Position numbers and translations under genes: made by a program. This document shows, piece by piece, positions 1 to 46,000 of a DNA stretch of 64,000 nt. Under the pieces are notes generated by a model. The model was not told the DNA's origin and made no database searches. It saw nothing but the letters and a program-made list of their open reading frames with translations. Position 1 is the stretch's first letter, and every line of letters begins with the position of its first letter. Origin of the DNA: Cyanidioschyzon merolae (taxonomy: Eukaryota); NCBI GenBank assembly GCA_000091205.1, contig AP006493.2; one strand, 5' to 3'.

Positions 1-990
1 TCCGATGAAGCAAGTATTCCCCTGAATGTGCACCGAGGCGTTGGAACCCTGACGGAGGAAGCGCCCGAGGTGCAAAGCGTGGACAAGCCGTCGCGCAGGA
101 GAGCACTGCGCACGACGCTCCTGTGTTTGTTTAACGCTTTATGTACGATCTGCATCGTTAGCGCGAATAAACTCGTCTTTGAGGGTTACGGGTTCCGCTA
201 CGGCACCACTCTAACGTTTTTCCACTTTTCGGCAACTGGACTGGGTCTCTTTGTGATGGCCGTTGTGCGCGTTTTCCGGCCAATACGTCTGGATCTGCAC
301 AAAACCTGCCTCTTAGCATTCTTCGGCATGGGTTTCGTTGTCTTCACAAATCTATCTCTGCTGCACAACTCTGTTGCATTCTATCAGTTGTTCAAGCACT
401 TGAACACGGTTGGCGTCATTGTGCTCGACTGGTCACTGTATCGGAAACCATTGCCTCCACAGTTGCGGCTTCCGATCTTTCTGCTGATTGTCGGCGTGCT
501 CATCAATACCTTTGGTGATTATCGGTTCAATGTTCTTGGTACCGTATATGCCTCGGGGGGCGTCATCGTAACGTCATTCTACCAACTGTTGGTGGGGCGC
601 TTCCAGGCGGAGCTACATTGCGATCCGATGCAACTACAGTTTTACACCGCACCTCTCTCGGCCGTCTTTCTCGCGCCATTTTTGCCCGTCTTTGACGAGT
701 ACCGATGGTGGCGTGAATCATCCATCTGGCGGCATCCAATGACTGCAGGAGGAGCGGGCGCCATCTTTCTGTCATCGCTTATCGCTCTTCTTATGAATAT
801 ATCAATCTTCGCGGTGATCGGGAACACATCAGCCTTGACCTACAATGTACTTGGACATGCAAAGACCTCCATCTTGCTCCTCATGGATTTTTTCCTTTAC
901 GGTAGACCACTGAATTTGCAGAATACTCTAGGAGTTTTAATTGCGCTGGCGGGTGTGTTCCTCTATTCGCGAGCAAAGCTCTCGAAGTAA
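1..990 (+). CDS. SLC35/TPT-family nucleotide-sugar transporter-like membrane protein, 5'-partial (reading frame is open to nt 1; the track start at 28 is GTG)
   Basis: Multi-pass hydrophobic protein of ~320 aa with TPT/NST-like helix arrangement (e.g. 'ANKLVFEGYGFRYGTTLTFFHFSATGLGLF', C-terminal 'LLMDFFLYGRPLNLQNTLGVLIALAGVFLY'). There are no in-frame stops back to the window edge. Confidence 0.5.
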   Translation, partial: SDEASIPLNVHRGVGTLTEEAPEVQSVDKPSRRRALRTTLLCLFNALCTICIVSANKLVFEGYGFRYGTTLTFFHFSATGLGLFVMAVVRVFRPIRLDLHKTCLLAFFGMGFVVFTNLSLLHNSVAFYQLFKHLNTVGVIVLDWSLYRKPLPPQLRLPIFLLIVGVLINTFGDYRFNVLGTVYASGGVIVTSFYQLLVGRFQAELHCDPMQLQFYTAPLSAVFLAPFLPVFDEYRWWRESSIWRHPMTAGGAGAIFLSSLIALLMNISIFAVIGNTSALTYNVLGHAKTSILLLMDFFLYGRPLNLQNTLGVLIALAGVFLYSRAKLSK

Positions 991-2335
991 TGCGTAACAC
1001 GAAACGAAACGTAACGAGGCGGAAGATAACACGCTTTGTGTAGCAGCAGCAGTAGTCGTCGTAGTCATACTAGAAGCTATCTCGATTGGCGTTGCTGTCA
1101 TCTGGCCCCAGCTCCCAGCATGAGCGGTGCCTTTAGGATGAGTGAGCTTATGGCATCTCGCATGAACCCTTTTTGAGACTGCCTGCTCTTTCCCTCTTCA
1201 GTCCGTCTGTTGCAATTGATCGTCCGTGCTTGAAGCTGCTTCGATCCCGTGCAACTATAGCAGCTGCTGCAGCAACCGTGCTCGTTCTGCGCAATAGTCA
1301 GGGACGCCGTCTCTGGACACACCGTACGGCAGATGATTCCACGTATCGTATGGCGTGGAATCACTTCAGGGCCAGTGCTTCACTCGGACAGAGAAAAGCC
1401 CAGTGCTGGCATGAATTGGCCATCAAGCAGGACATGCATCCTGCGAGGTTCTTTGAATCAATTTCTGAACTTCTGCAATAGGCGGGGGAAGATGGTACTC
1501 GTGACCACGCGCATATAAGAGTCATCCGCAAAACCGGATAGACGCTACCTGGGCGCTGCGGATGGAAATCCACTGAAAGCGTCAACAAGCGCACTTGGGT
1601 AGGCCAGCGATTACTGCACAAACGCAGTAGAAAGAGTGTCATCCATCGACTCGCACATGGTTCATTAAGCGACTAGCTCATGGATTGCTCAGAGGGTCCA
1701 TTTCGCAGGGGAACACTACAGATCGAAGCTCACTCAACGGGAACTGCGACCCGCGTTTCGAGGGATGCTTTTGGGTTCTCGAAAGGCTCTGCAAGTGGAG
1801 CGCTGGTGGGTTATGTGGACGGAAACCACCACTGCACACAGCAATGCTCGTAGATATTCTCCCGTATTTGAGAATAAAGGAACGGGAATGCAAAGCTTTG
1901 CGTGCGTACACGTGAATGCAGCCTATCACAGGCATCGCGGGTGTCTTCATGTTGCATTGGGCTGGAAGGTTAATTTGAGGGCGGAGCAAAACGTACCTTC
2001 CATAAACTTCTGCGATGCTGATGTCAAGAGATCTCGCGCATCCGCAACCTGTAAGCCGACCAATGCCCCGAGCGGTGCGCCCGGTACCCATTCGTGTTGT
2101 GTCTTGGGCAGATAATGTATACGGTGTGCTGCACTGAAACTAATGGGTTTAAAAGTATTCGTGGATTTACGTTACACCTCGAGTAGCGAATCGTGATTCG
2201 TTTCTGCATTTCCAACCTGATGCGAGCGGCGGCATCTAGACGGCATCGGGTACGATGCATCCCTCCGGCAGCAGGTAAAGCACAGACGCTGCGCGTTGAA
2301 TGTCTCTGGAAGGAACCCGATGCAGCTGTAGAACT

Positions 2336-2896
2336 TCGATGAGAGCAATATACATAGTGCAGAAATCGATTCTACACGATTCTCATCGGTGCGTTCGGGG
2401 CGAAACCCACACATCATGGCACCGGATGCACACTGCAACAGGCCGAGAAGAAGAGCTTGAAACCGAGCCGACTGCACGAGATGGTACGCTGCAATTTGGT
2501 CGAACGTCACATGGCGAGGCTACCGATGGCTGAAGCCTTGCACGTCTGTGATTCACTCTGCAACGGTGCGCGCGCAGACGTGCTGCACCGAGTCTTGAAC
2601 GACTTGTGAAACAGTCCAAGATATCTGGTGCCTCTGCGGCGTCCAGTGGATTTGTGTCGAACGAACGCTCATGGTAATCGTTTAGCGCACAGCGTAGGCA
2701 TTGGCTGAACGGCAGAAGACTTTCGATTGAGAAACCAGTCATCAGGAGCCAAACGATACGATGTTCGCCCGATGCAAATCACTGATGTGGAAAGAGATGG
2801 CAATCTCAAAGGGCTAGAGCGCCGTATATCGAGACTGTGATCGTTTTCCCATGGCAACTGCTTAACGATAGTGTTATTCGACTATTCGATGTTCCT
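2336..2896 (-). repeat. IR-L: left copy of a ~560-bp near-identical inverted repeat (partner 11128-11690)
   Basis: Reverse complement of 11128-11690 with only a few mismatches. The small ORFs inside are identical in both copies (62-aa 'MPWENDHSLDIRRSS...' at 2669-2857(-) and 11166-11354(+)). Boundaries were found where flanking sequence diverges ('...gatgttcc|tgagtat' vs '...gatgttcc|acataa'). Confidence 0.9.
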
Positions 2897-3286
2897 GAGT
2901 ATTTGAGTGCCGTTACATCCGCAACAATGATATGTGCATTCGGATGGAGCGCCATCCACCAGAAGACTAACGATACAGCCATGAATCAATACTGCTGACA
3001 TAAAATCATGTTTGTCGGTCCATTTAGAGGGATGCGTTCCATACGGTGGACATTTGTTCGAAAGCACAAGCACCGAAACGCGCTGGCGTTTCCGCCTGAG
3101 CACCAGCAGACGCATCTGACGCATCAGCAGCGGAGGCGGCAACTAGCGCTAAGCGTACCCCTCGATGTCGCATGCGCGACGGCTGCGGAGGTCTTCGCGA
3201 GGTCAGTGCAAGCGTGATCAATGGTCTTCAAACACTTGAAACCCGTGCACGGAACTCGTGACTCGATTCCCAAATGCGGCATCTTC

Positions 3287-4912
3287 TTAGCTGCTGTCAG
3301 CGGAAGTTGGTTGTCTCGTTTCAGGTAGATAACGCCAAAGCCAATATTCCCCGCCCATTAATATCAGAGCAAAGAAGAGAAATGTTCCAGCAATGCCAAA
3401 CAGTTCCCGCTGCAAGAGCGGGAAACCGATACTCACCGCAGTGGTAGCGACAGCGTTCACAACCATTCCGATCGAGTTCGCCGACGCCCGAGCCTCCGGC
3501 GAAAACAATTCATTCGCGACAAGAACAGCAAGCGGCCCGTGAGAGACAGCAAATACAGCGACAAACAACATGAGCGCTAGAAAGCCCGTAAATGCGACAG
3601 AGGATGAACCGTTTTCTGCTCGGGTCGCCCGGGCAAGCGCAAGATGACAGGCAGCAAGCACTGGTGTTGAAAAAAGGTACAGTTTCCGACGACAGGTGCG
3701 ATCGATGATACCGACTGCAACCAGCGTGGCAATCACGTTCATGACGGATAAAAGCACAGCACCGTACAAAGGCCCAGATAATCTCGCAAGGCGCCTGGAA
3801 GAACCCATCGCACTGGATTGCACTTGTTCCAAAATTTGCACACCATACACGAGGACAACGTTGATTCCAGTCAACTGTTGGAGAAGTTGAAGTATCATGC
3901 ATATCTGTATCCGCGGATCGCGCAAAAGGAGCCACACGCTCGCTCGAGATCGAGCTGTCGGGGACGATCCCCGAGCCAAAACTGCGTACATCGCAAAGCT
4001 CTCCACATCTTTCAAGCTCAGTGACTCGTTTTGCAAAGAAGGCCTCGAGATAACGTTGAAAGAGTGTCCCGCCTCGGCAGCATCTGGACGCAAGGCGCGT
4101 GCACTCGCTACCATACTATGCTCCCGCTCTTTCCGCTGCGACATCGGTTTCCCGGTCTCCAGCATATCGGCACTCGTAGCGTCCCTGTATGCAGAAACGC
4201 CCATGGAGGACTGATAGCGCAGCAGGCCGATACACATCAAGATAGCGGGCACGAGTGGATAGCGCAAAGGTCGGAGAAAGTTTCCGCGCATGTCGATCCC
4301 GGCGCCACCAGCAACGGGATCCACTTGACGGTGTACATCCTCGTGACCAGTGGCAAGATTAACGAGATTGGCCATAAGAATACCGATTGTTATCGCGAGC
4401 TGATAGAGAAAGACAAAGGCGCCTCTGCTTGTTGACGGAGCAACCTCTAGACACAGAGCTGGCCCGAGAACGTTCACGATGCCGGCGCCGATGCCAATCA
4501 GCAAGCGGTGGATGAGCAGCACCAGAAACGCACCCATCTGGAAGCGACCTGTTAACATCCGTTCTCGTTTTATGAGAAAAGGAAGCCCCGACCCGAGACA
4601 GAAGAACACCGAGCTCCAGCGTAGCCATAAATAGCGGCGCCAAGCAGCAGTTCCCGCCCCATGCGCAAGAAACGGGAGGACCCTCTGGTACAGGCATCCG
4701 ACGAAAGCTCCGACAAAGTACGACCCAAGCAGAACTTGCTCCCCGGAAGGCCACGAGCCGAACCAGTCTTGGAACGAGCGGAACGTCGTTACCGTTGAGA
4801 ACACTGCCAAGTGGTACCCGAAAAGCAACCCGCCAAGCAAACAAGACAGCAAACAAGGCCGGGCCCCAAAAGTGCTCAGAAACCTCTTCCATCTCACTGT
4901 GACGGTTTCCAT
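3287..4912 (-). CDS. MFS sugar-porter family transporter (first ATG at 4912; ORF extends to a GTG at 4984)
   Basis: TM1 motif 'GGLLFGYHLAVFS' lies ~27 aa after Met. Sugar-porter signatures present: 'NVIATLVAVGIIDRTCRRKLYL', 'ELFSPEARASANSIGMVVNAVATT', 'LGSYFVGAFVGC'. Confidence 0.6.
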   Translation of the reverse strand: METVTVRWKRFLSTFGARPCLLSCLLGGLLFGYHLAVFSTVTTFRSFQDWFGSWPSGEQVLLGSYFVGAFVGCLYQRVLPFLAHGAGTAAWRRYLWLRWSSVFFCLGSGLPFLIKRERMLTGRFQMGAFLVLLIHRLLIGIGAGIVNVLGPALCLEVAPSTSRGAFVFLYQLAITIGILMANLVNLATGHEDVHRQVDPVAGGAGIDMRGNFLRPLRYPLVPAILMCIGLLRYQSSMGVSAYRDATSADMLETGKPMSQRKEREHSMVASARALRPDAAEAGHSFNVISRPSLQNESLSLKDVESFAMYAVLARGSSPTARSRASVWLLLRDPRIQICMILQLLQQLTGINVVLVYGVQILEQVQSSAMGSSRRLARLSGPLYGAVLLSVMNVIATLVAVGIIDRTCRRKLYLFSTPVLAACHLALARATRAENGSSSVAFTGFLALMLFVAVFAVSHGPLAVLVANELFSPEARASANSIGMVVNAVATTAVSIGFPLLQRELFGIAGTFLFFALILMGGEYWLWRYLPETRQPTSADSS

Positions 4913-5081
4913 GAAAGCAGGTCGAGCATAGTTTCTCACCAAGCAAACCAGTATGCCGCTCCGGCTGGCAGCAACTGCAAACACTTTTTTCCTCGTTGAA
5001 GTCGCCCTCGCAGATGCAGCCGATGCGTTTGGGATGTCGCAGTCGCAGCAGCCGCACTAGTTTCCTACCACTTCGGTTCGT

Positions 5082-6473
5082 ATGTTGCAGCAGCTGTTGT
5101 TCGTTTCAGGAGCGTTACCCTTGGAAGCTCGAGTTTGCGTGCACAGGGATTCACCGATACCGATTTGCGAGGCAGGAGACCGAAAGCACTGGAGGCGCCA
5201 CCCCAAGGGTGCAACGCAACCCAGTTTGCAGAGCCTCGGACGGCCGTTGATCTTTCCGAAGCTGAGCGAGCTTTTCAGCCGAAGTTTGACTGTCATGGCG
5301 CTCGACCCTGAACCTCGAGCAGGACGCAGTCTTGGTCGCTCTGTAGATGACGCTGGGAGCCTACGCTTTCACGCTGGGGACGGCCTGGTTCCGAACGAGC
5401 TGGTGGAGGCGCGGAGCAGCTTCGGTGCACTGCCCCCGCGACACTGCCTCTTCGCGGAGTTTCTCGGAACCGCGCTGCTGACGACTTTTTCCGGCTTAAT
5501 CGGCCTTTCGAGTCCTGCTGCAGTGCCGTTTCTTGCGGGTGCAATGATCTCCTGTATAGTACTGAGTTTCATTCCCACGTCAGGAGCGCTTTTGAACCCT
5601 TTTGTGGTGCTCGCGCTCTACGTCACAAAGCGCCTGAGACTGGTACCGAGCCTTGCGTATACGGGCGCTCAACTTGCTGGCGGCACTCTGGGTGCCGTTA
5701 TCTTTAGCCTCTTGGCGACGCCAGACATGTATAATCGTGTGGCGGGGGGCACGGTCTCATTGCAGACCAACATGTCTCTATGGCAGGGAGCGGGCTGGGA
5801 GTTTTTCCTCACATTTAGCCTGATCTCGCTAGTTTCAACAATGGGGTTTGCAGCCTTCGAACTACACGCAGAGAACGAATACGCTCGTTGGATGCAGCAG
5901 GCTGTATTTGCGCTTCTAATAGGATTGCTTGTTGGATTCCTTGTGGGTGTCGGTGGCCCGATAACGGGATGCTCCATGAACGGCGCACGCGCTTTGGGGC
6001 CGCTCGCAGTCGCGCAGCTCCGGGCATGGATGACAGCGGCTTCTCCAGAATGGCTTGAACGGGCATCTCGAGGTCATTTTGTGATCTACTGGTTGGCACC
6101 GGCTTTGGGCTCGGTGACTGGCGCCCTGCTCATGGAACATGCCATCGTATCACCTTGGCTTGGGCGTGCTCCAAAATCTATCCTGCAGGATTTGAGCGTC
6201 TACACCAAGCGGAACATGGCTCAGCTGCGTAGCTATGGTACAGCTGGGCTCCTTGCGTATGGGATTCTGAACACCATTTTTTACGGTTCGGTTTTCACAT
6301 ACAGTTTGGTCTTTGTCTTTGCATCGCAGCCTGGGGCAATCGCCAAGGCTTGGGCGGCGAGCTGGGTCGCAAGTCAAGCGACGAAACCTTTTCGACTTTT
6401 TCTGGCGATCGCTATGGCGCCCTGGATTCGACGACTCCTTGAAAGGCTTCCTTGGAATCGGCACCAAAGCTAA
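5082..6473 (+). CDS. MIP/aquaporin-family channel with non-canonical NPF and NGA motifs and an N-terminal extension (alternative in-frame ATG at 5295)
   Basis: 'AEFLGTALLTTFSG', 'SGALLNPFVVLALYV' (first NPA position), 'GCSMNGARALGPLAVA' (second NPA position), 'FVIYWLAPALGSVTGALL'. Confidence 0.6.
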   Translation: MLQQLLFVSGALPLEARVCVHRDSPIPICEAGDRKHWRRHPKGATQPSLQSLGRPLIFPKLSELFSRSLTVMALDPEPRAGRSLGRSVDDAGSLRFHAGDGLVPNELVEARSSFGALPPRHCLFAEFLGTALLTTFSGLIGLSSPAAVPFLAGAMISCIVLSFIPTSGALLNPFVVLALYVTKRLRLVPSLAYTGAQLAGGTLGAVIFSLLATPDMYNRVAGGTVSLQTNMSLWQGAGWEFFLTFSLISLVSTMGFAAFELHAENEYARWMQQAVFALLIGLLVGFLVGVGGPITGCSMNGARALGPLAVAQLRAWMTAASPEWLERASRGHFVIYWLAPALGSVTGALLMEHAIVSPWLGRAPKSILQDLSVYTKRNMAQLRSYGTAGLLAYGILNTIFYGSVFTYSLVFVFASQPGAIAKAWAASWVASQATKPFRLFLAIAMAPWIRRLLERLPWNRHQS

Positions 6474-8129
6474 TGCAAAACTTGACGCGTTTCCTCAGGA
6501 GCTCTGTACGTCTCGCCGCTTGTGAACTGCTGTCTATGTCGATGCGATGCTGTCACTAAAGTACGTCATGTTGCGGGGTAGTAGTTGATTCACACCCGGC
6601 AAGGTGCAGAGATCGAAGTTTCTCGCTGGATCGAACCGATAGAGGCACGGTGACGTTCGATGTGACCGGAGCGAAAGCAGAGAAGCGATCGAAGCGCAAA
6701 GCGCTGAGGCGTTTGCTTCCGAGTTCGTTCTCGTATGCGCTGCAGTAGCTCTTGCGAATTCTGGGGCTAAACTAAACGAGGCATCTGAATGGTCGCATAG
6801 AAGGAGCCTCGCAGCCCTTTACATGCTTTCTTGGGGCTCCAAAGGCAGCACCGTACGTTGTACGCTCCAGGAGGCTTGGAATGCGTTGCCTCGGATCGGT
6901 TTGCGACGAGACAATGCCATCATAGCTGTTGCGGAAGTTTTGATTCATCAGCGGCCGGATCGCTCATGATCTGAGCTGGTGGCCGAAGAATCCCTGAACT
7001 GCCGGAACGGCCAGCGCTGAGCCTTCGCAAGACTTGAGCGCAGGTGTTTTCAACGGCTGAGACCGATGTATCTAAAAGGATTCTTTCATATGCGCGAGCG
7101 TTGTCTGTAACCGCAGGCGACGTGTGAGAGAGAAGTTGCATCTGCAGTTGCAGGAAGTTTACCGCGTGTTGCATTGCTTTCTGTAGGACTGGCAGGAGCA
7201 CTCTACGTATAATAGATGGGTTATGAACGGGGTGCCTCAACTGCTATTGCGCACTTTTAAACTCCAAAATGAGCGCTTTGCATCCTGGATGACGGCATCC
7301 GCGTCACCGAAAAGAACAACATGGCATCAACCATCGCCATGGATTTCCTTTTACGGATACGAGTGGTGCGTCGCCAGTCTCGGAACTTGGCCAGCGCTTC
7401 ACGTTCTATTTCTAATTCACTGTCAAGGAATTTGTTAACATATCTCAAGTTTATGTTACGCAAAGAGCACGGTGAGAAGCGAAAGGCGTCTGAAGGAAGT
7501 TCACACATGGTCGATGACATCAGTAGATTGCATTATTTCTTGAAAAGACCGCACGCTGGAGCAGATTTTTTCAGATCATTACAAATCAGATCGCTCAATA
7601 GCGGGAAAGAGCTCGAAGACTATAAGCAGCACGGAATGAACTGTGCTCAAGAAGCATAGCTTGCACCATAGGCTCAGTGTCAGCGCCCTGAACGGGCATT
7701 GCCTCTGTGCGCAGCAGCGGCAGGCAAGGCTCTCCCGATAAGCTTCCAGCGCATCGGCGCCTTGCATTCCTTGGAAAGAACAGTTCATCTACAAGCCTCA
7801 TACTGCAAACCGAAACGAACGCGATTCTCCGCGCACATCTACTGGGGCGCTCAAGACCCGGCCCAGGCAGAGATGCAGCTCGACATTTTCGTCGTGTTCG
7901 CAGGTTGACTCCCTTTTGTAGCACTGGATTGGTGCAGGCAGACACTTGTCGGCATCCAAGTGCATCAATATTCAGAAATGTTATACGCATAGATCAGATG
8001 AAAATGGAACACTGAATTGCTCGCTCTTTTCCTGCCTCTCGATTGTTTTCCAAACTTTTTTTAGATATTCAGCCTCGGCATTCCAAGTGCAGCAGGAAGG
8101 GCATGCGCATTCTTAAGAAGCTTTCGGAA

Positions 8130-8390
8130 TCTCGATCGTCTTTTCGGAGTGGCTCCATGTACTCTCGAACGCTGGCATTCGTTACGTCACCGGAATCAGG
8201 ATGACTCGCGACGCCATCAAACAGGGGTTCGAAAAATAAGCGATATCATTATCGAATTCATTCAGAAAAGCATCCAGTCTTCTGCATTACTTTCGTGTAG
8301 CATGCTCAAGTCACGCATTATTCAATATTTTGACCTCTCTATATGAAGGCAACTCATGGGTAAAGCAAGTCGCTCCGTTGGATTGACGCA
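8130..8390 (+). repeat. R1-E: ~260-bp fragment of the R1 dispersed repeat family (tail region only)
   Basis: 8150-8390 aligns with 36130-36370 (e.g. 'tcgttacgtcaccggaatcaggatgactcgcgacgcc' vs 'tcgttccgccaccggaatcacgatgctttgcgacgct'; 'agcatgctcaagtcacgcatt...aaggcaactcatggg' vs 'agcatgctcatattacacgtt...aaggcaactcgtggg'). Confidence 0.6.
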
Positions 8391-8988
8391 GAAAAACACT
8401 CGACCTCGTCAACGCACAACGTGGGATATGCTTGAGGCATCCATCGCTGGCGCGCATTGCTACCCTGACGAGTTGCCATAGAACACAACTTCGAACACGT
8501 GAAGCAATCGTGATTTGAGCATGCTATGCGTATGAAAGGCGAAGACTGGACGATTGTTCGTATAAATTTTCTTGCATTGTATCGGCTATGTAAAGAACCC
8601 TTGGTCGAGGCTGTCGCGAACTCCGTTGTTTCAAGTAACGTATCGAATCCCAGCGTCACATAGAGTCGATGAAGCCACCCCGAAAAGATGACGAAGAATC
8701 CTTAGAAACACATATTCATCTGTAAGACCTTATTGCCCTACTTCGGATGTCGAAGCTGTCCATGTAAAAAACGTTCAAAAATATTGCAACACAGGGACAG
8801 AGCGAGCAGTTCACGGTGGTATTCGAACATGACACGAGCGCGCGTTCATGCGCAAGCGCATGCTGTTGCGGCTGGAGCGGCACCACGCTTACCAAATACC
8901 GCTTCGTACTTCGTGTCACTTCGTGAACGGGAACGTGTGCTGTAGATGGTACGAAGATCACGGTTGTCCTTGAAACACTGCACCAAAC

Positions 8989-11076
8989 ATGGGAATAGCG
9001 GGATTCCAGCGCTGGTATCTGGAGAATTTCCCCAGCACAGTCGTTACGGTAACTGGGGAGAGCGCGCCTGAGCACTTTGACCACGTGCTTTTCGACCTGA
9101 ACCAGCTTATCCACTTGGCAGCGCGCGTCGCAAGAAACCGCGACCAGTTTTTCATCCGTTTATTCAGGTGGTTAGATAACATTCTTCGGCTTTGTGTACC
9201 GAAAAAGTCGGTCTTCATAGCGTTTGATGGCCCGGCGCCCTTGGCGAAGCTCGTTACGCAAAAGCGAAGGCGCGTCCTCGAGTCGAGGAAACTCCACCGC
9301 ACGCGCAAACGCAAACGACGTTGCGGCGTTGATGTGCTCAGCCTTTCGCCTGGAACAGAACTTATGCAGCTGACTTTGCAGGCTGTAGAATTTTACGTTT
9401 GTTCTCGACTGCAATCGAAGCGTCATTTGTACCAGAACGTGCGTTTCGTTGTGAGTGGTCCGACTGTTCCCGGCGAGGGCGAAATAAAAATCATCGACTA
9501 CATCCACCGCTATGTGGACCCGCAGCACTCCGTTGTCGTCATTGGCAGCGACGCTGATCTCGTGGTATTAGGACTGGCAACGCAGAAAGTTCGGAATTTC
9601 TTCGTCTTCGTTATCACTCCGCGAGCCAATATGCAGGACGCGCCCGAGCACGGGACTGCTCAGAAACGACAGGCTATAAGCGCCATCGTCATTAGCGTCT
9701 GGCAGTGGATTCGGGTTCTTGATCGTTTTTTCCCCGGTGAAACACCGTCTCTGCGTCTAGATCTGGTTGTGATGCTCATGATGCAGGGAAACGATTACTT
9801 GCCAAAGCTGCGCGGCACTTCATTTAATTCGATCTGGGAGGCGTACAAGGCTTTGAAATTGGACAAAGGGCCCATGCGAGGAAAATACCTCGTATGCAGA
9901 GAGCAGCGCAGTTTCGACTGGGAATTCCTGTACGCGCTCATGAAGCGCCTCATCAACCCGCTGGTCCCGAATCTTACGAAAGAGCTCATCGAAATGTATC
10001 GAGAAGCGAGCATACGTGGGCAAGAAGCGCTGAGACTCGCCCAAGCGGGGAATGCATCCGTAGAGGCCTCGTCATCCTGCGAATCCGAGTCAAAAGATTC
10101 AGTCGAACGCAACGTTCACCCGAGTGATCTGGAAGATGGCACCGAACCTGACGCTGCGCACGGCGAAATTTCGGCGGACGTCACGGATCCTGAGGATATT
10201 TTGGAGAAAGTGGATATACCGGAAGGCATATCGGTGGACGACGACGAGAAGCTGTACGACACAGAGGAATGGCTGCGAACGTTGCTTTGGGCGCTCGCGA
10301 TGTATATTGATGGATTCTGTCCCGATTTTTACCACACATATTCAAGGGCCTATGGACCATCGGCATCAGACATTGTTCGATGGCTTAAGGAGAACGACGG
10401 TGATCCGCTCCTGCAACTGCAACCGCCGTTGAGCGTTGCACCACCGCTACCACCGCACGCAGCGCTGTTAGCCCTGGTCCCGGCGAGCGCGGCGAGGCTT
10501 CTACCGCAGCCCATCTTCAAAAGAGTACTCTTGCGAAGTCAGCAGCAAGCCGAGAACTCCGAAAGCGCCGCAGAGATGGGAACGAATGCCGACGAGACTG
10601 CAAAACTGATCACATTCATCTTGCAAGATGACGGGCGACGCACGAATCGTTCACTTCTTTTGCGTGTTGTCGAAGGCATCCGCGATGACGAATACGAAGA
10701 AATCGAGAAGCATCGGACCCGGTTAAGCTCGTCGGTGGCTTTCGCACTTCGTCAGGGTGACATGTCTGGCAATGGTCGGACGTGCGCGAGCTCCCAGGAG
10801 CGGGCCCCAAAACTACCAGAGCCGCCTGTGCAACGGTTCGCCAAGCTGTCGCTGTCAGGTGCAGAGTTCAGCATTGAGGGCGTCCAACTTACAAGCACGC
10901 CGCCGTGTCGCTCATGGTGCTGGAGTACTGACGGGACGGAAGCGCGTCGAACGAGCAAAAAAGCGGTTTCGGTACAAAATCTGTCGTACAAGCGCGTATT
11001 TACCCGCAAAATACAATCGGAACGTTCTCAGCGGGACAGAAAACGCATCAACCATGCGACTGAAAGAAATCCTTAG
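8989..11076 (+). CDS. XRN-family 5'-3' exoribonuclease (catalytic CR1+CR2 core, 695 aa, short C-terminus)
   Basis: N-terminus 'MGIAGFQRWYLENFP'. Acidic active-site motifs 'VFIAFDGPAPLAKLVTQKRRR', 'PGEGEIKIIDYI' and 'VIGSDADLVVLGL' are present. CR2-like 'LWALAMYIDGFCPDFYHTYSRAYGPSASD'. Confidence 0.75.
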   Translation: MGIAGFQRWYLENFPSTVVTVTGESAPEHFDHVLFDLNQLIHLAARVARNRDQFFIRLFRWLDNILRLCVPKKSVFIAFDGPAPLAKLVTQKRRRVLESRKLHRTRKRKRRCGVDVLSLSPGTELMQLTLQAVEFYVCSRLQSKRHLYQNVRFVVSGPTVPGEGEIKIIDYIHRYVDPQHSVVVIGSDADLVVLGLATQKVRNFFVFVITPRANMQDAPEHGTAQKRQAISAIVISVWQWIRVLDRFFPGETPSLRLDLVVMLMMQGNDYLPKLRGTSFNSIWEAYKALKLDKGPMRGKYLVCREQRSFDWEFLYALMKRLINPLVPNLTKELIEMYREASIRGQEALRLAQAGNASVEASSSCESESKDSVERNVHPSDLEDGTEPDAAHGEISADVTDPEDILEKVDIPEGISVDDDEKLYDTEEWLRTLLWALAMYIDGFCPDFYHTYSRAYGPSASDIVRWLKENDGDPLLQLQPPLSVAPPLPPHAALLALVPASAARLLPQPIFKRVLLRSQQQAENSESAAEMGTNADETAKLITFILQDDGRRTNRSLLLRVVEGIRDDEYEEIEKHRTRLSSSVAFALRQGDMSGNGRTCASSQERAPKLPEPPVQRFAKLSLSGAEFSIEGVQLTSTPPCRSWCWSTDGTEARRTSKKAVSVQNLSYKRVFTRKIQSERSQRDRKRINHATERNP

Positions 11077-11127
11077 CAGGGGCTGCGCGAACAACTTGGG
11101 GTAAGCGCTCAGGCCCAATTATTATGT

Positions 11128-11690
11128 GGAACATCGAATAGTCGAATAACACTATCGTTAAGCAGTTGCCATGGGAAAACGATCACAGTCTCGATATACG
11201 GCGCTCTAGCCCTTTGAGATTGCCATCTCTTTCCACATCAGTGATTTGCATCGGGCGAACATCGTATCGTTTGGCTCCTGATGACTGGTTTCTCAATCGA
11301 AAGTCTTCTGCCGTTCAGCCAATGCCTACGCTGTGCGCTAAACGATTACCATGAGCGTTCGTTCGACACAAATCCACTGGACGCCGCAGAGGCACCAGAT
11401 ATCTTGGACTGTTTCACAAGTCGTTCAAGACTCGGTGCAGCGCGTCTGCGCGCGCACCGTTGCAGAGTGAATCACAGACGTGCAAGGCTTCAGCCATCGG
11501 TAGCCTCGCCATGTGACGTTCGACCAAATTGCAGCGTACCATCTCGTGCAGTCGGCTCGGTTTCAAGCTCTTCTTCTCGGCCTGTTGCAGTGTGCATCCG
11601 GTGCCATGATGTGTGGGTGTCGACCCGAACGCATCGATGAGAATCGTGTAGAATCGATTTCTGCACTATGTATATTGCTCTCATCGAATG
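11128..11690 (+). repeat. IR-R: right copy of the ~560-bp inverted repeat (partner 2336-2896)
   Basis: See IR-L. It begins 52 bp after the XRN stop codon. Confidence 0.9.
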
Positions 11691-11989
11691 AGCTGGGTCG
11701 CAGCCTTTTCGCGTTGCAGCACGTCCAGCGTCGTCGGCTACCGCCACACGACGCGACGTTTCGAGCATTTTCTTCTAAAATTGTTGTAGTTGGCAAAGGC
11801 ACGCCTCTTGCCTCAGTGCAACAGAAACCGTTGGCGTCCCAGCACAGATGCATGTTCTCCTGCAGAAGATCATCGGCTTGAGCTATTTGGACCCTCGTGT
11901 ACTCCCTGAATGAAGCCTGGAAAGCATTCTCCTCTGATCAATACGATGCCTAGATCATCGAGCTAGGTCCTGGGGCCGTCATTCCTCTT

Positions 11990-12260
11990 ATTGGTGTGCC
12001 TCGTGGCGTCCCTAATGAAGGACACTCGATGATCCAGAGCTCTCGACAAGCTCTGCATCTTCATCTGCGTTCTGTTCAGGTCTTTGGCACCATCCGCTTA
12101 TTGCATACGTACGGGAATGGATGTGATGCCCTCCAAATGAGGAATAATGCCCACCACCATGTTTTTTTTCTCCTCATCTATGTTGACGGGTGGGAAACGA
12201 GTATCGTTAGTCGGGACGAGCACAGGTATCAAAAAGTGCATGACGATTGATACACTCTCG
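11990..12260 (+). mobile_element. Possible degenerate Ty1/copia-type reverse-transcriptase remnant
   Basis: Translation 'TYGNGCDALQMRNNAHHHVFFLLIYVDGWET' resembles the copia RT block '...GF..sesDpClY......iyllLYVDDmli' with YVDD degenerated to YVDG. There are no intact flanking domains and the surrounding frames are broken. Confidence 0.2.
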
Positions 12261-14739
12261 ATCTCCATCGTCCCGTTCTACTGGATTCCTTTTCCTCTCT
12301 GTGCAAGAGAAGCCTTGAATGAACTCCGCCAATGCTCTCTGCAAAATTGTTCGAATGCATCATCGATTCTTCCAGAGACCAGCCGAATTTCTCACGGAAG
12401 AGGCTATACACCACAGCATTATCTTCGGCGATATATTTGGACTTGATGTCGTGTATAAGGATCACTTCGCATATACGCTCGTGTTCGGCGAGTCTACTTT
12501 GCTCCGGAGCGCTCCGTTCGGGAACATGTCCTAGTGCAAGATCCCAGGAAGATAGCCCTCAAGTGTCTATCGTTGTTTAGGCACGACAGCTTCTGTTCGC
12601 GGCTGAAAGCAATACGACGATTGTGGACGATCTGAAGCGACTCTCGCCTTTGTTGTGAAATCTCATCAGGACGCACGAGTACTTCGAGCTCTGCAACCGT
12701 AGACAGCTCGGTGTTCACCCCCGATGACAACCCCAAGAATCACTTCCTTCAATCCGCATTTTTCTGGGCTAGTGCGGTCAGCATATAACGCCCACAGCGC
12801 TCACTTCATCGAGCTCATGGTATTGGCCAAAGTATGCTTTTGGGTTTCGAGGTTGTCCAGGTACTTTTTTGGACCTGCGCAGTACAAATTCCCCTTGCCG
12901 AGGTGGCACAAGGTCGTACCAAGGTATTCCGGGTAGCGCGTGTGGAATCCAACTTGATCCTAGGATCAGGTTGATTTGCAATTTCTGTGTCGAGCGTCAT
13001 TTGGTTTTTGCTCACAGGTTTGATAGAAAACTTTCTGAGCAACGTGGACAGCTGGCAGCCCCGCTTCTTGAACTCGGGCGGATAGTTGGTTGACGAGGCG
13101 CGTCAAGGAGATGGACCCTACTGAAGACTTCCTCGGTCAAGATGCTACATTGGCCCTAATGGCGTCCTGCATGTCACTTTTCGGAAGCGTCAGCGAGATA
13201 ATGTGTTTTAGTAGCAAGGCCTCGAAAATGGTTTGGGACCGATGTTTCCGATCCGATATCATTTCTCGTCGGTCGTGAGTCGAGCATTTTTCTCGAGGAT
13301 CTTTCTTTTTTTTGTATTTCGGTTTCCTTTCCTTCCCCTTTTCCTGGCAGAGTGGTATACAAGTGTCCCCATGCTTCATATCCGCTCCGTTGCTCGGGAC
13401 TCAGGCCGACTGCGCGAACGATGGCATCGAAGCTCGCCCTCATTACATATGCGAACTATTCCTCGAGTTCGCGTCCATCATCCTGTCTTTCGCGAGCGTA
13501 TGCACTGACCAAAGCGCGCTTTTCAGTTTCTGCAAGTGCTCGATCACAGGAGCAACAGAGCAGCTCAGCACTGGTGAATACAGGGTTTGACTTGTCAGTG
13601 AACAGATTGTTGATGAGCGGTGACATGGATGCGAACGACCTGTCAATCGGTCCGTGATCGTAAAATTGTTATTCAACTACGGAGAAGACGCCTTCGACTG
13701 GATTGCACCGCGAGCCATATGCAGACACAACCAGGAAAAAACGCCAAAACTCAGATGCATACTTCTTAACCGCTCTTGAGCGATAGAAAGCGACACTGCC
13801 GAGGAATAAGCCTAATGGATGTGGGAAGCGGAAGCGATAAAGTGCTTATACGAAAAACCTGGTCTTGCTCGATGCTATGCGTTTGCTGACTCAGAGACGA
13901 CCACACAATCGCATCGTCGGTGGAGATGGTGTTTTCATCACGCTCGCTTGTTTCTTCAATACGAACAGCGATTCGCGCCTCTTTGAGTCCAAAGTACATT
14001 GGCCTACCCATTCTCCCCATTAATGTCATATCGAATGAGATGCACATCCGTACCTCCTCCTGTAAGCGTTCGCGTTTCAGTCCGAACTTGCTAGTTTGTT
14101 GTTCAGTGCGCGACGCTCTCGAATTCACGTGTGCTTTTTCCTCGCTCATCCGTCTCTCTTCTTCATCGTTCGTAGGCAAGGCAAGGGAAACCCATATCCT
14201 TCTGTGTCTGTTGCGGTATTTCATGGAGATCGCACGGCATGTATTTAGGTGAATACGAGACAGGCGCTCTGGCAGCGTTTCATAAGTTCAGCTTTGTACG
14301 GATCACGTGACGGACAGCGAGTGTGAGAAGGGAGGCGCATCCACCTGTTGACCGCAGCATGCCCGTTTCTTACAAGCAGACTGTTTTTTTGCAGGCTAGC
14401 ATTCACAGTATAAAGTCGTCCTGCTACCATTTTCCAATCTAAAGGGCAAAATCGTTTTATTCGATTACTTTGAGAAAACCAAAATAGGCACCAAAAAGGT
14501 GTGCCGCTACAAACACTGCGACATTTACTGTTCCAAGTTCGACCTTCGGAAGAAATATGCAAGCACCTGAGCATCTACCATGTCCACGTGCGGCGTTGCA
14601 TCTACATCCGTTCCAGATTAAATGCAACACCGGACAGCTCGTCCAGCCCCTGGCTTTAGATCGTTTGCCGAACCATTGACGTGCGGAATCGATATCCGAA
14701 GAGCAGCAAGAAGGGCTCACGGGATGACGAGTAGTTTCA

Positions 14740-15885: not shown

Positions 15886-16468
15886 ATACACTAGCGTTTA
15901 CCGCAGAGTCAAACAACTGGACTCCGTTCGATTTTGTGCACAGATGCGTATCAGGCGCTGAGCAGTGGCGGCAGTCAGCGCAACAGCCCCCTTAGACAGT
16001 ACATCAGCTCCCATTCACTTGATTCGCCTCGCATCCGTTCCCGTAATATTGCTCCAAGCCGAACCAAGACGCATATGTCTATACTGCGGGAGCATCCTCT
16101 TGTATAAATACAGGACACCTGTTGCACAGACTCATTTGCTTATCGGTGAATATATTTTTCCCCATGCAGTATCCGTTCCCTGATGCCCATCTTCGTGCCG
16201 TTGGGACCTCAAACTAGGCAAAATGCGAGATACCCGAGTTCGTAGGAGAGACCAGCCACTCGCAAAAATCTATTGTTTGTCCATTGTAGCGTCCGTGTGC
16301 CAGGCCTCGTCTTCATGTTTTCGAAAGCATACGCATGCGAGACGCAAGCTTTGCGTTCCGAAGGAGTTTACGATCTAACACCTGCGGTTGCGCTCAGCAC
16401 AGACTTCGCAGGCCACCTGCTGTCGGTGCTTCGGGCGGATGCATCCGACTCATCCTCGAGCCGACGCC

Positions 16469-16731: not shown

Positions 16732-18771
16732 ATGGAAAAAAATCCGACTCGTATGCAATCGCGAACGTCGCGAAAGCAGCTCCTAGAAGGATTCTTTCTG
16801 TGGCAGCAGCGGAGCTTGGTGGACGGCAGGTGTTCGCGGTGTCGCATGGCTGCAACTGCGGTGGCGTGTGTGAACCCCAAGTCTGGTGGACTGAGGGGAG
16901 CGAAAGTTCTGGAGGTGCTGCGTAAGATTCTGGGAGCGGAAAAGTGCCTGAACGTGCTGCAGGTCCCAAGCGCTGCCGAGTGGCTGGTTGAGAACTTTGG
17001 AGCAGAGGAAAACCTCCGCATTCTTATTTGCGGTGGCGACGGAACTATTAGTCGCGTTGTCGATAGTTATGTACAGGTGGTGAGTCGACTCAGCGCTTCA
17101 GGCGATTCAGCCAGTTCCGATCGTCAGCTGGACGTTCTTCGCAAATGGGCGTTTGCCCCGATTCCCATCGGTACTGGTAACGATCTAGCGCGCACGCTGG
17201 GCTGGGGCTCGAATCTCGTGGGTGTAAGCGGGCCTTTTTTCGAGGGCGTGGTCAGGTATGCAGTAGAGAGTGTACCGGTTCCGCTGGATACCTGGCAGGT
17301 GACGCGAAAGCGACTGAGGAGGCAGCAAGGCTCGCGCAGCAGCTCGCTGTTAGCCCACTTCTCCTCCGGTGAGGCTTCTGCGAACAGAGACCGCAGTGTT
17401 CGCTTCGCAAGCGCTGAATCTGGGGCTTGTGCGCCAGGTCAAGGTTCGGATTCGGAGTCCGATGAAGAGGAAGAGTCTACGTATGCGAGACGTTTCACGA
17501 TGCTGAGCTATTTGTCCCTCGGATGCGATGCGGATGTGGAATTGCTTTTCAACTCTCGACGAGAAGCAAATCCGAGACGATATCGGAGCCAGACGCTTAA
17601 CTACATTTCACATGCTCTCTTTGGGATCGAACGAACGATGCTGAGTCGGGCGCGACCTCTTTACAAGGAGCGCATCACGCTCTATGTTGATGGGCAACGC
17701 ATCAAGATTCCACGCGCCGCGCAGTCCCTTTTATTCGCAAACATTCCTTCCTATGGTGCTGGGGCGGATCCAGGTGGAGTGGCCCGCCGTCAGCGTCGGG
17801 CCCTAGCTCGGAAACAGCAACAGGTACTCCAACTTTGTCGCTGCTTTCATCGTCGGTCCTCAGGGGATCATACGGTTTCCCAGTCGGAAGCACATCCTCC
17901 CGGGGGGAGCGCGGTAGATAAGCATGCGGCTACAATCGACGCACGCACGGAGGGAGCGCATCATAGCCCCGATCCTGTCGAAAGGGAATCATCTCAGGCT
18001 GCACGTCAGGACGCTGTGGGCCCGCACGACTCTGTCAGCAGCGCAGTCCTGCCGTGCGTGGACGACGGCAGGTTGGATATCATGACCATGAAGAGTCTTG
18101 TTCATTTTGTATGGATTAAAATGGGTCGCGAGGCTCAGCGTCTGCGGAACGGTAGGAAAATTCGCATTGAGCTTGAGGAGAGTCGCTCTTCGTTGGTCCG
18201 CGCGGCCTCGTCGCTTGTCGCCAAACATATCGCAGTGCAATGTGACGGTGAGGCATGGAACCAAGCACGTAATGAATGCATCGAAATTGAGCCTTTCTCG
18301 TTTCAGGTAGGCTTCCTGCTTGGCCCACTCTACGCTGGGGCAATCTTTAAGGCAGACTCGCGCATGCGCTTGGTCCGCGGTCTCGTTGCTCCCTACCTGA
18401 AGCCAACCAGTGCACCCAGCGCAGTTTTCAGTCAACCAGATTCCATCAGATATATAGAGCAGGGCCTCTCCAAGGCGAGTGAGGCGTTCTTGGCTGGTGT
18501 TGGAGAACGTGCCAGGATCGCTCGCAGCGCCCCAGATGTGCCGCCGAGATCTTCCGTCAGCCGCACTGTGGCATCTGAGCGTTCCATCAGTGTCGAGCGT
18601 AGCGGGCATGCTAGCAACCGCCAACCCGAGACGCATCCCGAAGAAAATGACGAGTCCGGGGCGCCCAAGCAACGAGAGAGGTTCTCACGATCTCGGTGGT
18701 TGTCGCACGCGCTGGGCAGCTGTTTCGGTGGCAAGCGCCAGCCTGCTGGTGAACCTGTCGGGGCGAAATAA
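16732..18771 (+). CDS. Diacylglycerol-kinase-like lipid kinase (DAGK catalytic plus accessory domains; long low-complexity C-terminus)
   Basis: 'LRILICGGDGTISRVV', 'IPIGTGNDLARTLGWG', 'DTWQVT', '...LFANIPSYGAGADP'. The track start at 16726 is TTG; the first ATG is at 16732. Confidence 0.7.
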   Translation: MEKNPTRMQSRTSRKQLLEGFFLWQQRSLVDGRCSRCRMAATAVACVNPKSGGLRGAKVLEVLRKILGAEKCLNVLQVPSAAEWLVENFGAEENLRILICGGDGTISRVVDSYVQVVSRLSASGDSASSDRQLDVLRKWAFAPIPIGTGNDLARTLGWGSNLVGVSGPFFEGVVRYAVESVPVPLDTWQVTRKRLRRQQGSRSSSLLAHFSSGEASANRDRSVRFASAESGACAPGQGSDSESDEEEESTYARRFTMLSYLSLGCDADVELLFNSRREANPRRYRSQTLNYISHALFGIERTMLSRARPLYKERITLYVDGQRIKIPRAAQSLLFANIPSYGAGADPGGVARRQRRALARKQQQVLQLCRCFHRRSSGDHTVSQSEAHPPGGSAVDKHAATIDARTEGAHHSPDPVERESSQAARQDAVGPHDSVSSAVLPCVDDGRLDIMTMKSLVHFVWIKMGREAQRLRNGRKIRIELEESRSSLVRAASSLVAKHIAVQCDGEAWNQARNECIEIEPFSFQVGFLLGPLYAGAIFKADSRMRLVRGLVAPYLKPTSAPSAVFSQPDSIRYIEQGLSKASEAFLAGVGERARIARSAPDVPPRSSVSRTVASERSISVERSGHASNRQPETHPEENDESGAPKQRERFSRSRWLSHALGSCFGGKRQPAGEPVGAK

Positions 18772-43078: not shown

Positions 43079-46000
43079 AACATACCGACAGATATCGTTG
43101 GGCTTCAGCAAGCCCGCGGATTGGCGGCTCGATGGCACCGAACGCAGCCTCGTAAGAAATGTGCCAGGCTGATTGGCCACCAGGGCACTGATCGTGTTCT
43201 TGATTCCTGATCGTTGTCGAGGATAGATTATAGAGGAACTCCAGATGCTTTTTATGTTCATACAGCGGTCTTGAGTGCCCTTTCAGTCTAGTCCGTGCAA
43301 GCGGATACTTGAGCTTTCGAAGCACCGCCACAAGCGCTAACTGACACACGCGCTACCCGCGGCACATGCCTTACCTCTCGCGGAACTTGATACGATTACT
43401 CCAATGGACTGCTTTGGCAGTGTTCACGAGAACTTTGGATTGGCTTTGAATTGGGTTAGAGCACGGCAGCGTGGAGAGCGCACGCGGAATCCCCGAAACT
43501 CACGGATGTCAATGTCCTGGCTAGTCGTTTATATGTACGTCGCATTCGCCCCGAGATACGGATTCGCGCGCCACTGATGCTTGCTGGTCACGTCGTTCTT
43601 TCGACGGATATTAACCTTGTTCCAATGAAATGCGCCTGCGCGAATCGGCGAGATCCAGGTTGCCACCAACGATTACGGAACGCAATGTGCTGATATCCCA
43701 GCTCTGGAATGCCAGGCATGGTTCGGCTTGTATGTAGAATCTACGGGAGATTAAGAAAGTTTTGGTAAAGCCCACGAAAGTGCTGCTGGAATCAAGCTCG
43801 CTGTCGCTCCTCCTTCCGAAAGTCATTCGCACTGGGTCCCGTTCTACGCAGCCTCACTGCAGTAGCTTCAGGTACCTCCTCACCCTAGGATCATTTGCGA
43901 ACCTTCTGTATTTATCTAGTACACGCTCTGCGGGTGAGTCACCTGAATCCAGATGCATTTCTGCATGGGAGTCGCCGTAGTCTGGCGACGCAACGAAGCG
44001 ACATCAGAATCCGACAGTGCATCTTGAGGCCACACATGCTCCAGTTGTCTGCGCACTGCGGTTCGTTCAATCGCTCAATGCCTTCCAGGTGTTGATAATA
44101 AACCGTCCGGATGACGCAGAGGAGACCGCACACATATCACTGAACAAAAGACCCCAATGTCTGAGTCTTCGCGTTGTGCTGAGTTGACGTGAGTGGCATA
44201 CGTTTTCGTGGGGTGAGTCGTCCTTTCTCTTTGCGCATTGCGCGCGTTTCGCAAAAACAGGACTAGTTCGCCTCTGTGTACACGGATTCCTTCACTTAAA
44301 CCCTTTCCAATCCATACATATTGTGAGAAATACTGGTGAGGAAGCGATACATCGAAGAGGTTCCGAACAGCTGATAATGACGGCGATAGACCCGGATGAA
44401 CAAAGAAACAAGCACGTTTCTTCGAGAGATCGTCACTCGTTCAACAGAACACGTCCAATCTCGTACTGATATCCAAAACTTGTTGCGACACAGACTTGTG
44501 TTTTTGTCTCTTGATCAAATTTCGTTCCCATCAAACTGTATCCCTGTATATTGGCACTCGAACACAAAAACACTACTGTTCCTAAAGAAGAGACAAGGGA
44601 CCAAAACGACTGCAATTGCCCTGCAGGCCATTCAGTAGTGCGTTCGCCTACGATTTGCAATACGAACTAAATGTAAATATACATCGTGCTTCGTAGAAGC
44701 ACTTCGTGGCTTCTGATTTCCACATTCTTCTGACCTGCACGTAGACCGTGCCACTTTCCGTCACTCTCAAGCGGGCAAGGAGCGCGCTGCAGCGATTGGC
44801 GTTGAGCGGCTCTTGGTGCCAGGCTACTACCCCTGGTTCCGTCGACTCAAATGCGTCTTCTCGCGAGTGAAAGGAAACATCGAAGCGCATGGATCCATCG
44901 AAGGGTCGTTTGAATCCACGACACCCAAAGATGCACGACGCCATGAAGAATCGCGTAGCGTCTTTCTCATGGAAGGCGCATATGGCTTATCTCTCCCCAG
45001 CGTGCATCAGTATGCAACAGTTCGTTGGAGAGTTCCGGACGCTGGGATGCTATCTGTCTCAATTCGTCTGGAATTTTTCGACGAAGCATTTTTGCTAAAA
45101 TATGACGGGTGCTCGGGACGGAAGATACAATACGGGCCGAGCAGAGGATCAGATATTCGCTTCAAACGCTCACCAGGGGGTTGCGACGCGTCGCCGTGCC
45201 GTGTTGGCGATCGGGGTATCGAAAGCGCAGGCCCCGGAAACTCTCATACCAACATTTTTGACCAAAAGCATACGTGGGTCAATGCCGAGTGCTTCATGGA
45301 ACGTACCCATGGGCGTCCTTTGCGTATCCTGCTGAGCGTGATCAGGGAGAACTGATGACTGGGATTTCCGGCTGTCTCGATGGACGCAAATGACAAGCTG
45401 GTGGCGGCAGTGATCGATGCGGTAGCACGTGCGGAAGCGACATCGCAAAGACAGCAAGAGTCTCCCGAGGTATTCCATGCGTATTGTCTGGAGCTCGGCC
45501 TCGGACCGACGGACGTCGTATCCAGGGGATTGTTGGGAGGCCATGCTGCGTTCTTTACGCCTTGCGCCATTTTGTGTGCCTTGACGGAGACCGGCATAGC
45601 ATAGCAGACTCGTTGCTCGAACGCAAGCGCCCAAGCCTTGTCACGCGTCTATCGATATATAGTTCCCATGTATCAAACCGAGGCCCGTTGGATCATAGGA
45701 GGCATGTGTATGGTGTAGGTACTCCCCACTGAGGCTCGATTGGTCTTTGCGAGCGAGCACAAAGCTTTCGTGCAACATCGCGGAGACCATTAGCTGAGCT
45801 CATGCACAGTTTCTCGCTTCCGCGGACGAAATGGAAAGAACTTGACGAGGGCCATGGAGACCGACGGAATACGAGTCTGCGCGTACTTCGTGAGATTCGG
45901 TAAATCTAGTCCAGATGCGAGCAACGAGACTCGTCCTCAACTGCGCAATGTCGACGAAGAGAAGGACTTTATGTAGAGCGTGGATCCCATGCTCAGGGGG

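Follow-up and report, generated by a model that had tools for sequence, protein, structure and literature searches.

The subject of this study is an inverted pair of short repeats on chromosome 11 of Cyanidioschyzon merolae 10D, in a 64-kb stretch of DNA that we refer to as the window. The two arms, at 2335-2895 and 11128-11688, are 561 nt each and bracket three genes that encode a sugar porter, an aquaporin and a protein with an XRN N-domain. A dispersed repeat, here called F2, has a full-length copy immediately 3' of the XRN-like gene, and the right arm forms the intact end of that copy. On the left, the arm is a solitary copy of the same end; it stops at the family terminus on one side, is cut off after 561 nt on the other and sits in inverted orientation. 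The pair is probably derived from the F2 end and homogenised by gene conversion between its arms.

The feature is modest and largely ordinary, and it represents no new element type or mechanism. It is a clean, small example of a dispersed-repeat fragment making an inverted pair around single-copy genes in a simple eukaryotic genome. Its arms, only 561 bp long and 8 kb apart, are apparently kept alike by conversion in wild populations, and they sit where an inversion that became fixed in the sister genus has its breakpoints. Because C. merolae is haploid and genetically tractable, the rate of inversion versus conversion and any effects on adjacent genes are directly measurable.

The arms and the F2 repeat family

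A repeat search combined with MAFFT alignment places the arms 8232 nt apart. They align without gaps and differ at four positions of the inverted repeat (IR), namely 55, 66, 70 and 247, which gives 99.3% identity. The near-identical pair of about 560 bp put forward in the original prediction is thereby upheld, with its coordinates corrected by 1-2 nt, and the search finds no second long inverted pair in the first 16 kb or anywhere else in the window. The other repeats of the window are 57-77% identical, apart from a tandem array of a 153-bp unit within a coding gene, whose copies match the reference copy at 66-93%. The arm edges are sharp. When the arms are aligned with 100-nt flanks, similarity falls to background right outside both ends, and local alignment against shuffled sequence detects no residual homology past either boundary out to 1.3 kb (z = 0.1-1.2). 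The idea that the 561 nt are a conversion tract within an older, longer duplicate was rejected on this absence of residual homology. The IR has the ends TTCGATG...GTTCC. The short palindrome noticed earlier (CGATGAGA...TCTCATCG) was located at IR positions 3-10 and 46-53, and the family-terminus end of the unit reads ...TTCGATGTTCC. Open reading frames (ORFs) in the IR have no Pfam matches, in keeping with the earlier remark that it holds no intact ORF with family resemblance.

Read on the plus strand, the left arm runs from its truncated outer end to the family terminus at its inner end, which lies 391 nt past the stop codon of the sugar porter. It occupies the intergenic region between the convergent genes for a TPT-family transporter and the porter. 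The inner end of the right arm lies 51 nt past the XRN stop, and its outer end runs unbroken into the repeat body. Both arms thus lie in the 3' flanks of outward-pointing genes and have the same sense relative to each gene, as had been claimed.

The family to which the arms belong is represented within the 64 kb by three pieces plus the left arm. The two longer copies, copy 1 and copy 2, match each other at E = 1.5e-117 by nhmmer. A sensitive self-BLAST of the window aligns 11163-13172 with 46971-44931 (57% over 2076 nt, E = 2.7e-75) and 13619-14166 with 44925-44377; copy 1 carries an insertion of ~430 nt at 13185-13615 relative to copy 2. In copy 2, the counterpart of the arms spans about 46446-47006, and its end lies ~388 nt beyond the stop codon of a UDP-glucose dehydrogenase gene. 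On the outer side, the flank of the right arm is homologous to the paralogue (z = 40) and that of the left arm is not (z = -0.7). Indeed, the flanks of the left arm share homology neither with those of the right arm nor with the paralogue. On the inner side, the flanks of both arms show no resemblance to the inner flank of the paralogue (z = 1.6-2.1), and the homology of the paralogue to both arms stops within the last few nucleotides of their inner end. All three copies end at the same nucleotides within ~3 nt. Since this inner end is seen in three different contexts, it is a genuine family terminus. At the other end, the left arm stops at 561 nt, whereas the right arm and copy 2 run on by over 2 kb. 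Identity to copy 2 is 55% in the arm unit and 55.7% in the F2 body; being as diverged as the body, the arms are not a slow-evolving part of F2.

F2 itself looks non-coding. Pfam detects no domains in all six frames of 11100-14500, and Rfam returns no matches either at the gathering threshold or at E <= 1. Mismatches between copies 1 and 2 lack codon periodicity and have a transition:transversion ratio of 1:1. When the stop-to-stop ORFs of 11100-16700 are compared with the rest of the window by tblastn, the matches are weak and fall in several frames and on both strands, which argues that this interval is non-coding. Judged by sequence, the ORFs in F2 have the same non-coding look, and the copies do not agree on any one reading frame. 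A separate observation concerns the alignment of 11128-13184 with 47006-44928, where ~2 kb at 55-60% identity contain very few insertions or deletions. Freely drifting non-coding DNA rarely shows such a pattern, which may point to a constraint on length.

Comparison with known element classes gives a mixed picture. No pair of terminal inverted repeats (TIRs) bounds F2 copy 1 or copy 2, and MAFFT finds no direct repeat common to the flanks of either arm that could be a target-site duplication (TSD). The TIRs and TSD of a miniature inverted-repeat transposable element (MITE) or other class II DNA transposon are thus both missing from F2 and its arms, and the P-MITE database lists no MITEs in C. 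merolae (PMC3964958). A solo long terminal repeat (LTR) or LTR retrotransposon does not match any better: the ends are not TG...CA, there is no TSD, Pfam finds no gag or pol, and the window contains no direct-repeat copy of the IR. LTR elements have not been reported from C. merolae, in which retroelements are all non-LTR and recognisable transposons are few (PMC1955436). The likeness to 5'-truncated non-LTR copies lies in the exact terminus that F2 copies share and in the one copy that is cut at an arbitrary internal point. In contrast to such copies, F2 has no poly(A) or simple-repeat tail, no TSD and no remnant of a reverse transcriptase (RT) or endonuclease in the full-length copy, and the new copy, the left arm, lies only 8 kb from its source.

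C. merolae also carries 253 copies of a novel transcribed interspersed element of 3.2 kb, which make up ~5% of its genome (Nozaki 2007, PMC1955436). F2 resembles this element in being ~2.6-3.0 kb long, intergenic, dispersed and without an intact ORF, and in being absent from the Cyanidiococcus and Cyanidium loci examined. The element was defined by a truncated ORF weakly similar to WSV486 of white spot syndrome virus (PMC1955436), and F2, which matches it in size and dispersal, may be the same element. A second dispersed family of the window, E1, with copies of ~1.3 kb that are 59-67% identical, could equally be the Nozaki element. Repeats amount to 12.7% of the C. merolae genome, compared to 0.59% in Cyanidiococcus (Cho et al. 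2023, PMC9812998), and the expansion is reported to be specific to C. merolae (PMC9812998). The possibility raised at the outset that the IR is an ordinary transposable element inserted twice is partly upheld: the arms are pieces of a repeat family, but they come without TSDs, and no other near-identical copy turned up in a limited metagenome scan (3 contigs returned), where a 29-mer from the IR matched this locus only. The 19-nt terminus occurs in the two arms only, even with 3 mismatches allowed.

Probable exchange between the arms in natural populations

The locus recurs in metagenome contigs from hot-spring JGI, ENA and Logan assemblies, which are ~99.2-99.9% identical to the window. The same arm junctions appear in more than 15 independent assemblies, and two contigs of 26.9 kb (L009 and L010) hold both arms in the arrangement of the window. 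A further contig spans the left arm (L021) and three span the right arm (L012, L019 and L020), with unique sequence on each side. Left-arm junctions are also found in L043-L051 and right-arm junctions in L033-L036. Coming from the TPT side, ten assemblies run into the left arm at one common outer junction, and at least four coming from the DAGK/F2 side do likewise at the outer junction of the right arm. Many other contigs, 8236-8518 nt long, consist of the inter-arm block and end at the arms or ~140 nt inside them, which is the expected behaviour of de Bruijn assemblers at a repeat. No arm is missing from any assembly that covers the locus, and each C. merolae-type population sampled across it carries the two arms. 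In one contig (L031), 136 nt of arm are followed at 3189-5772 by AT-rich sequence whose 768-aa low-complexity protein, rich in lysine, aspartate, alanine and proline, clearly belongs to another organism; the ORF was set aside as the product of a chimeric contig that joins the arm to foreign DNA.

Only one orientation of the block is seen. All 8 arm-spanning stretches (3 left and 5 right, on 6 contigs) have the reference orientation of 10D, and none contains an inverted junction; the inverted isomer, which the original prediction proposed to look for in population or strain assemblies, was not seen. Between 10D and MS1 Ha3, one inversion and one translocation are reported, on chromosomes 3 and 19 (PMC13353863), in a comparison whose resolution an 8-kb inversion may escape.

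Across strains, the arms vary at 14 sites. Since an assembler may mix arm-interior alleles in short-read contigs, only flank-anchored sites were used: typing was limited to IR sites 20, 55, 66, 70 and 130, which are within ~140 nt of unique flank, in contigs that enter the arm from that flank. At sites 66, 70 and 130, the haplotypes G-A-C and T-C-A each occur on left and on right arms in different samples. Four samples were typed for both arms, and in each of them the left and right arms are alike at these three sites. Over the five sites, the two arms read GATCA and GATCA in samples 3300050358 and 3300050357, GAGAC and AAGAC in 3300005573, and AAGAA and GAGAA in 3300051093; in the last two samples site 20 alone differs. 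The arms of 10D carry two mixed haplotypes, AGGAC and AATCC, which are unlike at sites 66 and 70. This sharing of polymorphisms across the arms, as typed in short-read metagenome assemblies of mixed populations, indicates gene conversion between them. As a consequence, the 99.3% identity does not date the duplication. The arms show no GC enrichment of the kind associated with biased gene conversion. The original prediction had imagined a shared 3' module kept identical by conversion. This proposal is half right: conversion is supported by the shared haplotypes, but the unit proves to be the terminal 561 nt of a dispersed repeat, and a function as terminator or untranslated region (UTR) is putative.

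The human Y palindromes and plastid inverted repeats provide a familiar comparison for homogenisation by conversion. As in those systems, the arms are ~99% identical where other paralogues stand at ~55%, polymorphisms are shared between the two arms, and key sites agree within the samples typed for both. The differences are that the C. merolae arms are only 561 bp long, contain no gene and no GC enrichment, and flank an 8.2-kb spacer of single-copy genes.

On the favoured account, F2 copies would have spread through the intergenic DNA of C. merolae once its lineage had parted from Cyanidiococcus. A single duplication that kept to the terminus of the element may then have placed a truncated, inverted copy 8.2 kb from the full-length one, either as a truncated copy of the transposition type or as a second insertion of the same burst that was later trimmed. 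Intrachromosomal conversion would then have kept the close arms ~99% identical, while distant paralogues drifted to ~55-57%. The pair would constitute a latent substrate for inversion through non-allelic homologous recombination, with inversion being rare or selected against. C. merolae is proficient in homologous recombination, and a role of the pair as an inversion substrate is possible and plausible, with inversion itself not observed. On this count the earlier suggestion of such a substrate fares unevenly, as the isomer is not seen in populations and the same block is inverted in the sister genus. Any role of the pair for the flanking genes is putative.

Several points weigh against a repeat-derived, converted pair. 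Neither a TSD, a poly(A) tail, TIRs nor an RT ORF was found, so that any mechanism of transposition would be conjectural. An insertion free to land anywhere in the genome would fall 8 kb from its source only as a ~0.1% coincidence, unless the pair was noticed only because close copies stay homogenised. The match between the arm positions and the Cyanidiococcus breakpoints described below (~1 in 28, post hoc) is left unexplained. In addition, the interior alleles of the arms are possibly assembler-mixed, so that flank-anchored sites alone count, and the count of F2 copies refers to the 64-kb window.

The block in related genera and alternative explanations

In a Cyanidium caldarium-like relative (L008, 46% XRN identity) the block has the same order as in C. 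merolae, as judged from the window together with L043: CAF1A(-) TauE(-) IF-2B(-) TPT(+) porter(-) MIP(+) XRN(+) DAGK(+) LsmAD(-) ... GST(-) TPM(+). In two Cyanidiococcus species (loci L002-L006, with 63% XRN identity, and L007, with 64%), exactly the segment porter-MIP-XRN is inverted between TPT and DAGK. The tree derived from XRN identity is ((Cyanidiococcus A, Cyanidiococcus B), C. merolae), Cyanidium. Together with the Cyanidium order, this tree implies by parsimony that the inversion is derived in Cyanidiococcus and that the C. merolae orientation is ancestral. The Cyanidiococcus breakpoints fall in just those two intergenic intervals in which C. merolae has its arms. These are 2 of the 8 intervals in a nine-gene collinear stretch, a coincidence of ~1 in 28 by chance, reckoned post hoc, which we cannot explain further than as chance or a shared permissiveness of the intervals. 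Neither an inverted repeat nor F2-like sequence is found at the breakpoints of the relatives examined. When all intergenic segments are compared by sensitive BLASTN with the loci of Cyanidiococcus and Cyanidium, no matches appear, and the ancestral junctions are therefore untraceable. As a side observation, L002 has two intergenic tandem duplications, at 4502-4687 and 14566-14751 (93 nt x2 and 91 nt x2, 97% identical), the first of which lies in the DAGK/porter interval, an inversion breakpoint.

In the Drosophila breakpoint model, inversions are flanked by inverted copies of transposable elements or by inverted duplications left by staggered breaks. The present case is alike in that an inverted pair brackets a block whose orientation differs between sister taxa, with breakpoints in the same intervals as the arms. 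It differs in that the lineage with the repeat is ancestral in orientation, the inverted lineage is without the repeat and no orientation polymorphism is seen.

The second variant of that model supplies an unlikely alternative, in which a staggered-break inversion duplicated the 561 nt at the breakpoint as the block flipped in the C. merolae lineage, either as a re-inversion from a Cyanidiococcus-like order or as a flip that was reversed through recombination between the arms. In its favour, the block runs the other way round in the two Cyanidiococcus species and has its breakpoints in the arm-bearing intervals; on its outer side the right arm adjoins the sequence native to it (z = 40), which the scenario would lead one to expect, and a TSD is absent. 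However, the scenario requires the derived orientation in the lineage that carries the duplication, whereas C. merolae shares the orientation of the outgroup Cyanidium, and two inversions that reused the same breakpoints would be needed. A nick within ~3 nt of the family terminus is also needed, a coincidence of ~0.2%. The inner flank of the left arm is predicted to be native to F2, but it shows no significant resemblance to the paralogue (z = 2.1), whose homology to the arms ends at the terminus in any case. Nor is there non-coding homology to the relatives by which the old junctions could be traced.

Selection on function offers another explanation, to which we give little credence: the 561-nt unit would be a 3'-flank module, such as a terminator, a 3' UTR or an RNA element. 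In the window, each of the three copies of the unit follows a stop codon, at 51, 391 and ~388 nt, and all have the same sense relative to their gene; an XRN transcript with a 3' UTR longer than 51 nt necessarily runs into the arm; the predicted fold is mildly stronger than that of shuffled sequence (z = -2.6 and -2.1), and interspersed elements are reported to be transcribed (Nozaki 2007, PMC1955436). Three placements in the same sense would nevertheless arise by chance about 1 time in 4. At just 55% identity, the third copy retains no conserved block; the z-scores of the fold differ little between the strands and so do not point to RNA; Rfam returns no matches; and the orthologous genes of the relatives are without the unit. 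A related role for the arms in small RNA or double-stranded RNA is unlikely because the unit would have the same sense in the two mRNAs, and because the Cyanidiophyceae have lost Dicer and Argonaute (PMC9812998).

A further reading, with which the coincidence of arms and breakpoints would accord, makes the pair an ancient inversion switch that predates the split of Cyanidioschyzon and Cyanidiococcus, was kept identical by gene conversion, gave rise to the Cyanidiococcus inversion and later decayed there. Since conversion operates, the identity of the arms sets no limit on their age. Such a history is nonetheless quite improbable, as the repeat family looks too young and too confined to one lineage for it. 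No trace of F2 and no inverted repeat remains at the L002 or L007 breakpoints; F2 paralogues can still be aligned at 55-57%, whereas orthologous intergenic DNA cannot be aligned between the genera; the repeat expansion is reported to be specific to C. merolae (PMC9812998); and none of the 8 arm-spanning stretches shows the inverted isomer. We similarly doubt, with a good deal of confidence, that the two intergenic intervals are a recurrent inversion hotspot, ~18 kb from the mating-type region, where the conversion-maintained IR or predecessor repeats would have flipped the block repeatedly, with one flip fixed in Cyanidiococcus and rare isomers perhaps present in C. merolae.

Finally, it is highly improbable that the pair was created by misassembly, or that a composite mobile unit carries the three genes with the arms as its terminal repeats, both of which the original prediction had entertained: short-read assemblies do break at the arms (the IR-bounded contigs of 8236-8518 nt), but the 10D genome was finished telomere to telomere (PMC1955436), the proteins of the window equal the finished 10D proteins, both arms recur in independent assemblies, unique sequence lies on each side of the arms in six independent contigs that cross one or both of them, and the three genes are syntenic with the same neighbours in Cyanidium, Cyanidiococcus and C. 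merolae, relatives without the repeat included, which argues that the enclosed genes are not the cargo of a mobile unit.

Neighbouring genes and other repeats

Pfam supports the identity and orientation of the three enclosed genes as first described, and the coordinates of these and other features are collected in the table. The porter protein BAM80459 is annotated in 10D as 'L-arabinose permease', with its start at the ATG at 4912. Calls of 423 aa for the porter in environmental contigs were considered as truncations and rejected, as they reflect the choice of start codon by gene callers. The window start cuts the 5' end of the TPT gene, which is complete in L009 and L043. To the right, exact matches continue with BAM80463 (an LsmAD protein) and BAM80464 (CMK071C). 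Since the BAM accessions of 10D are consecutive, there is no annotated coding sequence in 6474-8988, the ~2.5 kb that had been noted as free of gene calls, or between the XRN-like gene and DAGK. No tRNAs were found.

Features of the window around the inverted pair, with strand and supporting matches
Feature	Position	Strand	Description
TPT-family transporter	28..990	+	Left neighbour, outside the block; Pfam TPT
Left arm	2335..2895	+	Isolated 561-nt copy of the F2-family end
MFS sugar porter	3287..4984	-	Pfam Sugar_tr 1.5e-56; exact match BAM80459
Aquaporin	5082..6473	+	Pfam MIP; exact match BAM80460
XRN-N-domain protein	8989..11076	+	Pfam XRN_N 2.4e-41; identical to BAM80461/XP_005536497
Right arm	11128..11688	-	Last 561 nt of a full-length F2 copy
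F2 copy 1	11128..14166	+	Non-coding repeat of ~3.0 kb (3039 nt) between the XRN-like gene and DAGK
Diacylglycerol kinase (DAGK)	16732..18771	+	Right neighbour, outside the block; Pfam DAGK; exact match BAM80462
F2 copy 2	44377..47006	-	2630 nt; paralogue 55-57% identical to copy 1
F2 far-end fragment	59989..60757	+	nhmmer E = 1.7e-35
E1 copies	36045-37349, 49238-50572, 60919-62231, 14614-15901, 7995-8410

The 2.5-kb interval that lacks gene calls contains a diverged palindrome of 0.8 kb (8013-8813, 63% self-complementary), which consists of two inverted left-end fragments of E1 and lies a short way upstream of the XRN-like gene. Several E1 copies end ~0.5-0.8 kb upstream of gene starts and face the gene (TAF6, UDP-glucose dehydrogenase and DAGK), a placement which suggests that repeat modules are set consistently relative to promoters. 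Another inverted pair, 16435-16669 and 21570-21805, is 73% identical over 240 nt. It adjoins the starts of DAGK (+) and of the LsmAD/ataxin-2-like gene (-) on the upstream side, with the same sense to each gene, and so forms a 5'-flank counterpart of the 3'-flank arms.

The mating-type region of C. merolae is also inside the window (27238-33629, per PMC13353863), ~18 kb from the right arm. It comprises the short gap between HAP2/GCS1 (CMK076C, 27238-29517, minus strand) and CMK078C (29643-33629, plus strand), a receptor-like gene of the leucine-rich repeat/growth-factor-receptor/TNFR kind. The 153-bp tandem array mentioned above lies inside CMK078C at 30795-31706, where five copies are 66-93% identical to a reference copy; it probably corresponds to repeated cysteine-rich domains of the Ephrin_rec_like/TNFR type (22 Pfam stretches).

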